Below are positions 3,926-4,057 of a stretch of DNA of 64,000 nt, piece by piece. A program made the position numbers and the translations under genes. The notes beneath the pieces were generated by a model. That model saw nothing but the letters and a program-made list of their open reading frames with translations. It was not told where the DNA came from and made no database searches. The stretch's first letter is position 1, and each line of letters starts with the position of its first letter. Origin of the DNA: a phage; assembly GCA_012747475.1 (NCBI GenBank), contig GCA_012747475.1_3928.1. The stretch is one strand, 5' to 3'.

Positions 3926-4057
3926 CAGAAGACCGTTTACAGCAAAACTTAAACAATCTATTTCTCCGGTAAAGAAAAGGCGAAGGTTCGATTCCTTCAC
4001 TCGGCAGACGTCGAGTTGGTGTAATGGTAGCACTTAAGATGATAAACAACGGTCTGG
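3926..4057 (+). ncRNA. candidate Y RNA-like (YrlA-like) RNA: terminal helix enclosing a permuted tRNA-like module
   Basis: Terminal helix AGACCGTT (3930-3937) / AACGGTCT (4048-4055); inside, T-arm GAAGG-TTCGATT-CCTTC (3982-3998), then 7-bp acceptor-like hairpin ACTCGGC-AGAC-GTCGAGT (3999-4016), then D-arm-like TGGTGTAATGGTAGCAC; no anticodon arm. Confidence 0.45.

Follow-up and report, generated by a model that had tools for sequence, protein, structure and literature searches.

The tRNA array of a Felix O1-type phage raises the question of what occupies a 430-nt gap without annotation between its genes for tRNA-Asp (3700-3777) and tRNA-Lys (4207-4282). The window that we analyzed, the 64,000 nucleotides of contig GCA_012747475.1_3928.1, carries 25 tRNA genes (ARAGORN and Rfam scan), all on the + strand and separated by spacers of 1-8 nt, and many Felixounavirus genomes match the region at 98-99.5% identity. 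An earlier note, made from the letters alone, had placed an element resembling YrlA, a bacterial Y RNA bound by Ro60/Rsr, at 3926-4057 within this gap. We conclude that the element, here called M4 (3922-4061), is probably a stable, Y RNA-type non-coding RNA and one of four related RNAs (M1-M4), with a frame bound by the Ro60-fold protein of the open reading frame (ORF) 1467-2882 and a core that acts as a tRNA mimic. Taken together, M1-M4 look like RNA partners so far missing for the Ro60-like proteins, a widespread phage family. We found no paper describing the M4 RNA, and DUF2828, a Pfam family to which the protein belongs, turned up only in unrelated plant papers.

The minimum-energy fold of M4 contains all helices of the earlier note, together with a 4-bp outer helix (P0, 3923-3926/4057-4060) and a hairpin at 3961-3977 (Table 1). 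The terminal helix (P1, AGACCGTT at 3930-3937 with AACGGTCT at 4048-4055), the T arm (GAAGG-TTCGATT-CCTTC, 3982-3998), the hairpin next to it (ACTCGGC-AGAC-GTCGAGT, 3999-4016) and the D-arm-like segment (TGGTGTAATGGTAGCAC, 4017-4033) all lie in the sequence where they had been read. The element itself is real, but it extends 4 nt further on each side than 3926-4057, and three paralogues sharing its frame had been overlooked. P0 is followed by an asymmetric internal loop with AGA on the 5' strand facing a single G on the 3' strand. The same six helices were obtained from the minimum-energy fold, from RNAalifold with 12 distinct orthologues of three genera and from a covariance model of close relatives only. 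A helix CUUAA/UUAAG in the place of an anticodon stem (3948-3952/4034-4038) appeared in the single-sequence fold only; it is not kept in Mooglevirus or Suspvirus, is absent from RNAalifold and was not counted. Because the folding energy of M4 alone is unremarkable (z = -1.7 to -1.9 for the single sequence), the case rests on comparison.

For this comparison, we used a covariance model (R1) built from 12 Ounavirinae M4 sequences only, whose E-values are rough due to a shortened calibration, and an alignment (A6) of its matches, distant relatives included, which were fitted to the model. Compensatory changes occur in 31 of the 32 pairs of A6, covering all pairs of P0 and P1 as well as 5/5 of the T arm, 7/7 of the closed acceptor stem and 4/4 of the D arm. 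The proportion of paired cells was 94.9%, compared with 66% in shuffles and ~42% in slid controls, and the covariation score of 0.442 (vs. 0.128) was reached by none of 500 shuffles. The weakest helix is the variable-arm or anticodon-like hairpin with 75% pairing. Within the Ounavirinae, three of the seven pairs of the closed acceptor stem show compensatory changes (ACACGU/GCGUGU; in Michonne ACCCUUC/GAAGGGU), and RNAalifold recovers the same helices from an unfitted alignment of close relatives, in which the closed acceptor stem covaries too. The fold put forward in the earlier note is thus borne out by covariation among homologues. A strict scanner for a T arm, a closed hairpin and a D arm, which gave 0.4 matches in ~1 Mb of shuffled sequence, matched 28 of 90 sequences, one of them the control phage Bxz1; its match in locus L063 was a false positive caused by an ordinary pair of adjacent tRNAs.

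These data bear on the alternative that M4 is a functionless, decayed remnant of a tandem tRNA duplication; a decayed tRNA gene remnant had been considered in the earlier note. Trimming both ends of a tandem duplicate with a spacer of 1-8 nt gives exactly the M4 arrangement, which makes this a plausible origin of the element. As an account of its present state it is extremely improbable and was not borne out, with frame, T arm and D arm invariant over three genera in which intergenic DNA is only ~80% identical, compensatory changes in the closed acceptor stem, and structural homologues beside distant DUF2828 genes in which 31/32 pairs covary. A recent copy of a resident tRNA was also considered and rejected, as the core shows no convincing similarity to any of 26 resident phage tRNAs.

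The core of M4 is a complete tRNA that is circularly permuted at position 26/27. In a search with 86 nt, 3960-4006 matched positions 25-71 of the Rfam tRNA model RF00005 with 32.2 bits as a 5'-truncated tRNA, spanning the anticodon arm, a 4-nt variable loop, the T arm, the 3' acceptor strand and a discriminator A, and 4010-4035 corresponds to tRNA positions 1-26 (GUCGAGU-U8-G9-GUGU-AAUGGUA-GCAC-U). The nucleotides U8, A14, G18 G19, U54 U55 C56 and A58 are kept. Un-permuted and supplied with CCA, the core is called tRNA-Thr(GGU) by ARAGORN; the Mooglevirus version behaves alike, and the distant homologue of locus L084 is also called a tRNA. In its native order, M4 gave no ARAGORN tRNA call and was not among the gathering-score RF00005 matches of the whole-window scan, and a 431-nt search yielded a local 22-bit match only. 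The hairpin at 3961-3977 occupies the variable-arm position by topology and aligns as an anticodon arm with the tRNA model. Its loop reads CCGGUAA here (with C33), CUGGUAA, CUUAUAA or CUAUAAA in relatives and, shortened to 6 nt, CGGUAA in two phages (L009 and L011). Because this anticodon-like loop is not conserved, M4 is not a decoding tRNA. It also has no contiguous cloverleaf, no U33 or conserved 7-nt loop, and an acceptor stem closed by AGAC rather than ending in CCA. The earlier statement that this cannot be a conventional tRNA gene stands as far as no CCA follows position 4005, but not in its claim that an anticodon arm is missing, as an anticodon-arm-like hairpin does exist.

Circularly permuted tRNA genes of the alga Cyanidioschyzon merolae give rise to functional tRNAs via a bulge-helix-bulge motif and a circular intermediate. 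M4 resembles them in having the 3' part of the tRNA upstream of the 5' part, a short linker across the acceptor stem and a full cloverleaf after un-permutation, and it might accordingly be a real gene of this type, maturing to a decoding tRNA-Thr(GGU) once its ends are joined and the linker is opened; the only other Thr tRNA of the phage is tRNA-Thr(UGU). We consider this very unlikely. The anticodon loop drifts: it has C33 here and only 6 nt in L009/L011, the triplet is another one in Sf16 and ESh22, and Michonne has a different hairpin. CCA is missing although the neighboring tRNAs encode it. Unlike in C. merolae, the break point at 26/27 opens into a stem of the protein-binding type, consisting of a 4-bp and an 8-bp helix with a 3/1 internal loop and without a bulge-helix-bulge at the ends, and the same frame holds non-tRNA cores in M1-M3.

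Read about the junction, the parts of M4 follow in the order acceptor, D arm, terminal stem, hairpin, T arm, with the terminal stem in the position of the anticodon stem and the hairpin in that of the variable arm, which is the YrlA layout of Chen et al. 2014: 5' strand, variable-arm hairpin, T arm, closed acceptor stem, D arm, 3' strand (PMC4201824). YrlA RNAs are encoded within ~4 kb of a Ro60 gene on the same strand and contain the sequence GNCGAAN0-1G, a presumed Rsr contact, near their 5' ends (PMC4201824). M4 is like them in that its ends pair into a stem, that the same order of arms is present with tRNA-invariant loop nucleotides, and that it starts 1040 nt downstream of a Ro60-fold protein gene on the same strand. 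It differs from YrlA in its frame of CAGA-AGACCNN...NNGGUCU-GG plus UNCAGCAA, which lacks GNCGAAN0-1G, in its partner, a DUF2828 and DUF7788 protein instead of a Pfam TROVE protein, in the anticodon-arm shape of the hairpin before the T arm and a core representing a whole permuted tRNA, and in having three frame-sharing paralogues inside a tRNA array.

The four paralogues were recognized from their frame. The 20-nt motif CAGAAGACC-NNN-U-N-CAGCAA occurs in four mismatch-free copies in the 64-kb window, all on the + strand between 3217 and 3945, and each copy is followed downstream by GGTCTGG. The common frame consists of a 4-bp outer helix, an AGA/G internal loop, a helix of 7-8 bp (AGACCNN/NNGGUCU) and the single-stranded UNCAGCAA. 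P0 covaries over the folds of M1 to M4 (UGAC/GUCA, UUAC/GUAA, GAGC/GCUC and UUAC/GUAA). The cores are short and AU-rich in M1, M2 and M3 and tRNA-like in M4 only, and the starts of all four lie 4-10 nt from tRNA ends. In eight of eight Ounavirinae phages of the genera Felixounavirus, Mooglevirus and Suspvirus, the full set of four occurs in synteny, with invariant frames and diverging cores. Model R1 retrieved M2 (52.6 bits, E 1.7e-8) and M1 (40.6 bits, E 8.5e-6) from the window. The single-stranded UACAGCAA, a candidate protein-contact motif, is invariant in all four paralogues and in all Ounavirinae, and framed RNAs next to distant DUF2828 genes have UNC(A)GCAA in the corresponding place. 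The frames were also examined as promoters on account of -35-like boxes (TTGACA/TTTACA) at their 5' ends; this was rejected, as only M2 gave a weak match (9/12) and the box is absent from distant frames.

Paralogues with a conserved stem and variable interiors are the hallmark of Y RNAs. The metazoan Y RNAs Y1, Y3, Y4 and Y5 are bound by Ro60 at a conserved bulged end stem, and their interiors differ among the paralogues (PMC4201824); M1-M4 resemble Y RNAs in this broad sense, as they share a bulged end stem around variable interiors. They differ from the animal RNAs in carrying GGUCUG(G) on the 3' strand, whereas GGUCCGA is located on the 5' strand in animals, and no contact of the GGUCCGA type is present on the 5' stem strand of M4 (AGACCGUU). 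They also differ in not being RNA polymerase III transcripts with a U tail, and the tRNA-like module of M4 is absent from metazoan Y RNAs.

The earlier note had placed a gene for a Ro60-like protein about 1 kb upstream, and this proved to be correct: ORF 1467-2882 ends 1044 nt upstream of the start given there, on the same strand, and its product is assigned the Ro60 fold by Foldseek. The AlphaFold2 model (predicted local distance difference test score 85, predicted template modelling score 0.87) shows a ring of helical repeats and then a von Willebrand A domain carrying a MIDAS (metal-ion-dependent adhesion site) motif, i.e., the predicted architecture is that of Ro60. In the PDB, Foldseek ranks 1-12 were all Ro60/Rsr structures matching over the full length (probability 1.0, template modelling score 0.5-0.65), including 2i91, 2nvo, 1yvr, 9kop and 9l5y from Xenopus and human Ro60, Deinococcus Rsr and the Ro60 of Thermus phage phiLo; the matches ranked below these are isolated von Willebrand A domains. 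The MIDAS residues D279, S281 and S283 are invariant, and hhalign aligned the ORF profile with the TROVE protein gp220 of Bxz1 over the MIDAS DVSxSM region (E 5.5e-5). The protein is identical at 463/471 positions (98%) to gp130 of phage Bas63, for which a Ro60-like fold has been noted and whose deletion sensitizes the phage to the Ppl defence system; the same authors also raised the speculation, naming no genes, that 'some tRNA genes are possibly Y RNAs' (bioRxiv 10.1101/2024.10.10.617714).

A phage Ro60-fold protein with adjacent Y-like RNAs is also known from phiLo, which encodes phiRo60 next to Yrl1 and Yrl2 and for which hijacking of the host polynucleotide phosphorylase (PNPase) has been proposed (PMC12135203); its structures 9kop and 9l5y are among the top fold matches listed above. 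The two systems differ in that the phiLo protein, identified via UniProt, is described as a Ro60 homolog and was deposited as a Trove domain, and in that the phiLo RNAs were chosen by a CGAA motif, with no tRNA-like module described (PMC12135203). No sequence relation of Yrl1 or Yrl2 to M1-M4 was found.

The link of the RNAs to the protein was evaluated in distant phages. A single search returned 2,556 homologues of ORF 1467-2882 at E<=1e-5, and we collected 80 viral contigs with a homologue gene as the sole criterion of choice, of which 65 are distant (40-47% identity). Sites were located by NNNNNNN-NNN-CNGCAA only and then searched for a perfect 7-bp partner followed by G downstream, using a home-made and noisy scanner. 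On the strand of the gene, 125 of 820 sites in the distant loci had such a partner vs. 47 for a permuted-helix control, and on the other strand 28 of 713 vs. 25.6. At most 500 nt separate 65 framed sites from the DUF2828 gene, and 52 of the 65 loci contain at least one within 2.5 kb. The bases of the inner helix vary in the distant frames (AGGUUCC/GGAACCU, AGGAUAG/CUAUCCU, AGAAUGC/GCAUUCU and others); AG(R) at the start, (Y)CU-G at the end and CAGCAA are kept. Full-length distant matches of model R1, all on the strand of the gene, were found in L084 (7571-7712, 59.4 bits, E 5e-10) and L026 (5369-5514, 51.8 bits), and likewise in L040 (35.8 bits), L033, L050 and at additional elements of L026.

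These loci help to judge two further alternatives. According to the first, M1-M4 are tRNA mimics or decoys acting through host proteins only, such as RNase P, PNPase, the Rsr of a Salmonella host or anticodon nucleases, and their linkage to the phage Ro60 gene is one of neighborhood. Phages are known to use their tRNA arrays for counter-defence (references cited in PMC13155118), and a tRNA-like core is the type of structure that such enzymes recognize; however, it is the frame and not the core that is conserved over distant phages and tracks the DUF2828 gene and its strand, M1-M3 lack a tRNA-like core, and the frame is devoid of the motif thought to be recognized by host Rsr, which leaves this alternative distinctly unlikely. 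The second regards the frames as cis-acting, either as processing or punctuation sites of the tRNA precursor or as autoregulatory sites for the Ro60-like protein in untranslated regions (UTRs). All four indeed lie between tRNAs in an apparent single transcription unit, and distant framed sites are found directly up- or downstream of the DUF2828 gene at UTR positions. For a cis signal, however, a conserved permuted tRNA core would be unnecessary, and so would several copies whose structured cores differ, and two promoter-like sites plus tRNAs separate the Ounavirinae elements from the gene. The interrupted helix of 11-12 bp is also short for an RNase III substrate, and the architecture is that of YrlA, a stable RNA; we therefore regard a cis-acting role as unlikely. 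All four alternatives to a Y-like RNA with a Ro60-fold partner are opposed, to differing degrees, by the covariation, by the presence of several copies that differ in their cores, by the drift of the anticodon loop and by a linkage to the gene that is strand-specific.

Several observations weigh against this preferred reading. On the RNA side, M4 gave no match with the YrlA model RF02553 (Rfam 15) at E<=10 in either the 431-nt or the 86-nt search, and the Rfam covariance search suggested by the earlier note for Y RNA and YrlA families returned only tRNA fragments for M4, at gathering score and at E<=10. For orientation, the Bxz1 element upstream of its TROVE Ro60 gene, taken as a control, scored 32.5 bits with RF02553 (gathering score 69), and two relatives found by R1 scored 38.2 bits (L026, 5749-5886) and 35.8 bits (L033, 5856-5989), likewise below the gathering score. 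The 5' region of M4 (UUUACAGAAGACCGUUUACAGCAA) contains no GNCGAA, and the known Ro60 contact motifs GNCGAAN0-1G and GGUCCGA are absent from the frame. The Levitt pair 15:48 is not kept, with A15 opposite C or A at position 48; M3 was missed by model R1 at E<=10; fitting A6 to the model biases it towards the structure; and the frame scanner found no framed site in 13 of the 65 distant loci. On the side of the protein, Pfam finds neither TROVE (PF05731) nor vWA_Ro60 (PF25045) in ORF 1467-2882, both of which match the control Bxz1 gp220, and a sequence search of the PDB returned nothing relevant. Finally, the promoter and terminator calls are pattern matches only, and the functional role is extrapolated from bacterial Rsr/YrlA and one preprint.

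Because TROVE and PDB sequence matches are lacking, the Ro60 homology rests on the fold and a weak profile match, i.e., the relation to TROVE proteins that the earlier note had built upon is not apparent from Pfam but is from the fold match to Ro60/Rsr. Its YrlA-like reading is retained as to element order, context and the Ro60 fold of the neighbor, but not as to the RF02553 match and GNCGAAN0-1G. M4 is tied to YrlA by architecture, genomic context and transitive model matches, and it is not a member of the family in the strict sense. Because it fails to match RF02553 and lacks GNCGAAN0-1G, we filed it under a DUF2828-associated family of Y-like RNAs and not as a YrlA member.

How would such RNAs be made and used? 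Two strong promoter-like sites lie between the stop codon of the Ro60-like gene and the first tRNA gene, tRNA-Pro, and the sites at 2901-3021 likely represent the start of a transcription unit for the tRNAs and Y-like RNAs. No terminator-like site was detected by pattern scan on the + strand between 3048 and 4440, the next one following only past tRNA-Ile. M1-M4 would thus be transcribed together with the tRNA array from promoters downstream of the Ro60-like gene and may be released by the enzymes that mature the flanking tRNAs. By analogy with the binding of Ro60 to the bulged stem of Y RNAs, the frame is the predicted binding site of the ORF 1467-2882 protein. With the elbow contacts U8-A14, G18-U55, G19-C56 and U54-A58 kept, the M4 core would adopt an L shape and be neither charged nor decoding. 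As has been proposed for bacterial YrlA, the tRNA-like module could serve as a decoy or adaptor and might bring the Ro60-like ring to factors of the host that bind tRNA or degrade RNA (PNPase, RNase P or tRNA-directed defence nucleases, for example), if the examples of Rsr-YrlA-PNPase and phiLo apply. The particle may function in RNA surveillance or counter-defence during infection and may underlie the anti-Ppl effect.

Table 1. Features of the Ro60-like gene, the promoter-like sites and the framed RNAs M1-M4 in the analyzed window.
Feature	Position	Strand	Description	Basis
Ro60-fold protein gene	1467-2882	+	471 aa; Pfam DUF2828 + DUF7788	Pfam, AlphaFold2, Foldseek, hhalign
Sigma-70-like promoter 1	2901-2929	+	TTGACA-17-TAATAT	Consensus scan, pattern match only
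Sigma-70-like promoter 2	2992-3021	+	TTGACA-18-TAAAGT	Consensus scan, pattern match only
M1	3213-3293	+	Between tRNA-Glu and tRNA-Met; UGAC/GUCA, AGA/G loop, AGACCAA/UUGGUCU, UACAGCAA, variable core	
M2	3380-3451	+	Between tRNA-Met and tRNA-Asn; outer helix UUAC/GUAA; frame identical to M4	
M3	3835-3916	+	7 nt upstream of M4; outer helix GAGC/GCUC	Exact frame motifs and predicted fold
M4	3922-4061	+	Complete YrlA-like RNA	RNAfold, RNAalifold, model R1 and distant matches
M4, frame 5' strand	3923-3937	+	P0 UUAC 3923-3926, AGA internal loop 3927-3929, P1 AGACCGUU 3930-3937	
M4, single-stranded motif	3938-3945	+	UACAGCAA, immediately 3' of P1	Conservation
M4, variable-arm or anticodon-arm-like hairpin	3961-3977	+	UUUCU-CCGGUAA-AGAAA	RF00005 alignments
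M4, T arm	3982-3998	+	GAAGG-UUCGAUU-CCUUC, with U54 U55 C56 G57 A58	
M4, closed acceptor stem	3999-4016	+	ACUCGGC-AGAC-GUCGAGU: 3' acceptor strand, 4-nt linker, 5' acceptor strand	
M4, D arm	4017-4033	+	U8-G9, then GUGU-AAUGGUA-GCAC with A14, G18 G19	
M4, frame 3' strand	4048-4060	+	P1 AACGGUCU 4048-4055, unpaired G4056, P0 GUAA 4057-4060	

It is an evenly balanced question, in our estimate, whether these results reach much further. DUF2828/DUF7788 proteins would then constitute a large, divergent Ro60 branch in many phage lineages, with its own undescribed family of framed Y-like RNAs as a modular device by which the phage offers look-alikes of tRNA to RNA enzymes or defence nucleases of the host, explaining both the effect of Bas63 gp130 against Ppl and the origin of YrlA. 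On this reading, each genome would encode 1-8 framed RNAs with an AGR...YCU-G stem, an asymmetric internal loop and a single-stranded CAGCAA, the interchangeable cores would include whole tRNAs, either circularly permuted or without an acceptor stem, and YrlA-type RNAs would originate when the junction of tandem tRNAs is captured within a stem that binds Ro60. The preferred reading of M1-M4 would by itself give a very common family of phage proteins with no known function its specific RNA partners, offer a lead on Bas63 gp130, whose counter-defence phenotype was reported without a mechanism, and extend Ro60/Y RNA biology to a branch missed by sequence searches. RNAs of the M1-M4 type are a candidate for a new Rfam family, and there would be a concrete path by which tRNA genes can evolve into Y RNAs that mimic tRNA.

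The distant loci contained several other tRNA-related structures beside DUF2828 genes. In L084, at 8329-8428 (+), a frame replaces the acceptor stem of a tRNA in normal order (RF00005 positions 5-66, 55.7 bits, at 8352-8413), and a framed RNA in L026 (4897-5017) has a T arm directly followed by a D arm, without a closed acceptor stem. Rfam tRNA matches of 113-121 nt without an ARAGORN call are located beside the DUF2828 genes of L050 (7895-8015 and 8025-8137) and L078 (9787-9905), which suggests tRNAs with large insertions; the one at 7895-8015 overlaps an R1 match at 7940-8072. ARAGORN also called a tRNA with the anticodon CUA (labelled Pyl) in L084 at 8919-8994, possibly an amber-suppressor tRNA.

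Several GenBank records annotate 'hypothetical protein' ORFs over the gap, and correcting these annotations is a further consequence where opposite-strand ORFs overlie the RNAs. In Bas63 (L001), bas63_0137 and bas63_0138 (3618-3770 and 3782-3892, minus strand) run antisense to M3/M4 and the region corresponding to 4056-4206; given the conservation pattern of the RNAs, these and similar ORFs are probably spurious calls. The supplements of the Bas63 preprint contain no data on ORFs overlapping M4. Directly upstream of the Ro60-like gene, a DUF5681 gene (1014-1385, +) is present in all Ounavirinae loci and in none of the 65 distant DUF2828 loci, and was rejected as a system component because it is confined to the Ounavirinae. 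An Rfam tRNA match of 31.7 bits without an ARAGORN call at 4718-4796 (+) occupies about the same array position as a tRNA-Arg (AGA) annotated in Bas63.

The gap itself contains further conserved structures on the + strand. Directly after tRNA-Asp, at 3783-3835, a GC-rich hairpin (GAGAGGGCU-AUUU-AGCCCCUC), which was not called by the terminator scan, is followed by the short palindromes CCCUUAAAGGG and CCUUUAAAGG, both nearly invariant over three genera. Directly 3' of M4 and before tRNA-Lys, 4056-4206 forms a separate conserved structure without an Rfam match, whose outer helix of ~24 bp shows five compensatory pairs across genera. Its inner hairpin, CAGAC-CUUAAGCAA-GUCUG here and CAAACC-CUUUAGCAA-GGUUUG in the Mooglevirus version, echoes the AGAC/GUCU and CAGCAA of the frame in its stem and loop. 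A processing site of the RNase III type is one possibility for this region, a fifth RNA that binds protein another. Some phages match the gap (3780-4210) only in part, namely SPT-1 and warpig from 3918 on, SP116 as far as 3998 and ESCO49 from 4034 on. Their break points are close to boundaries of modules, near the ends of the T arm and of the D arm, which suggests gain, loss or exchange of modules via recombination between the repeated frames.

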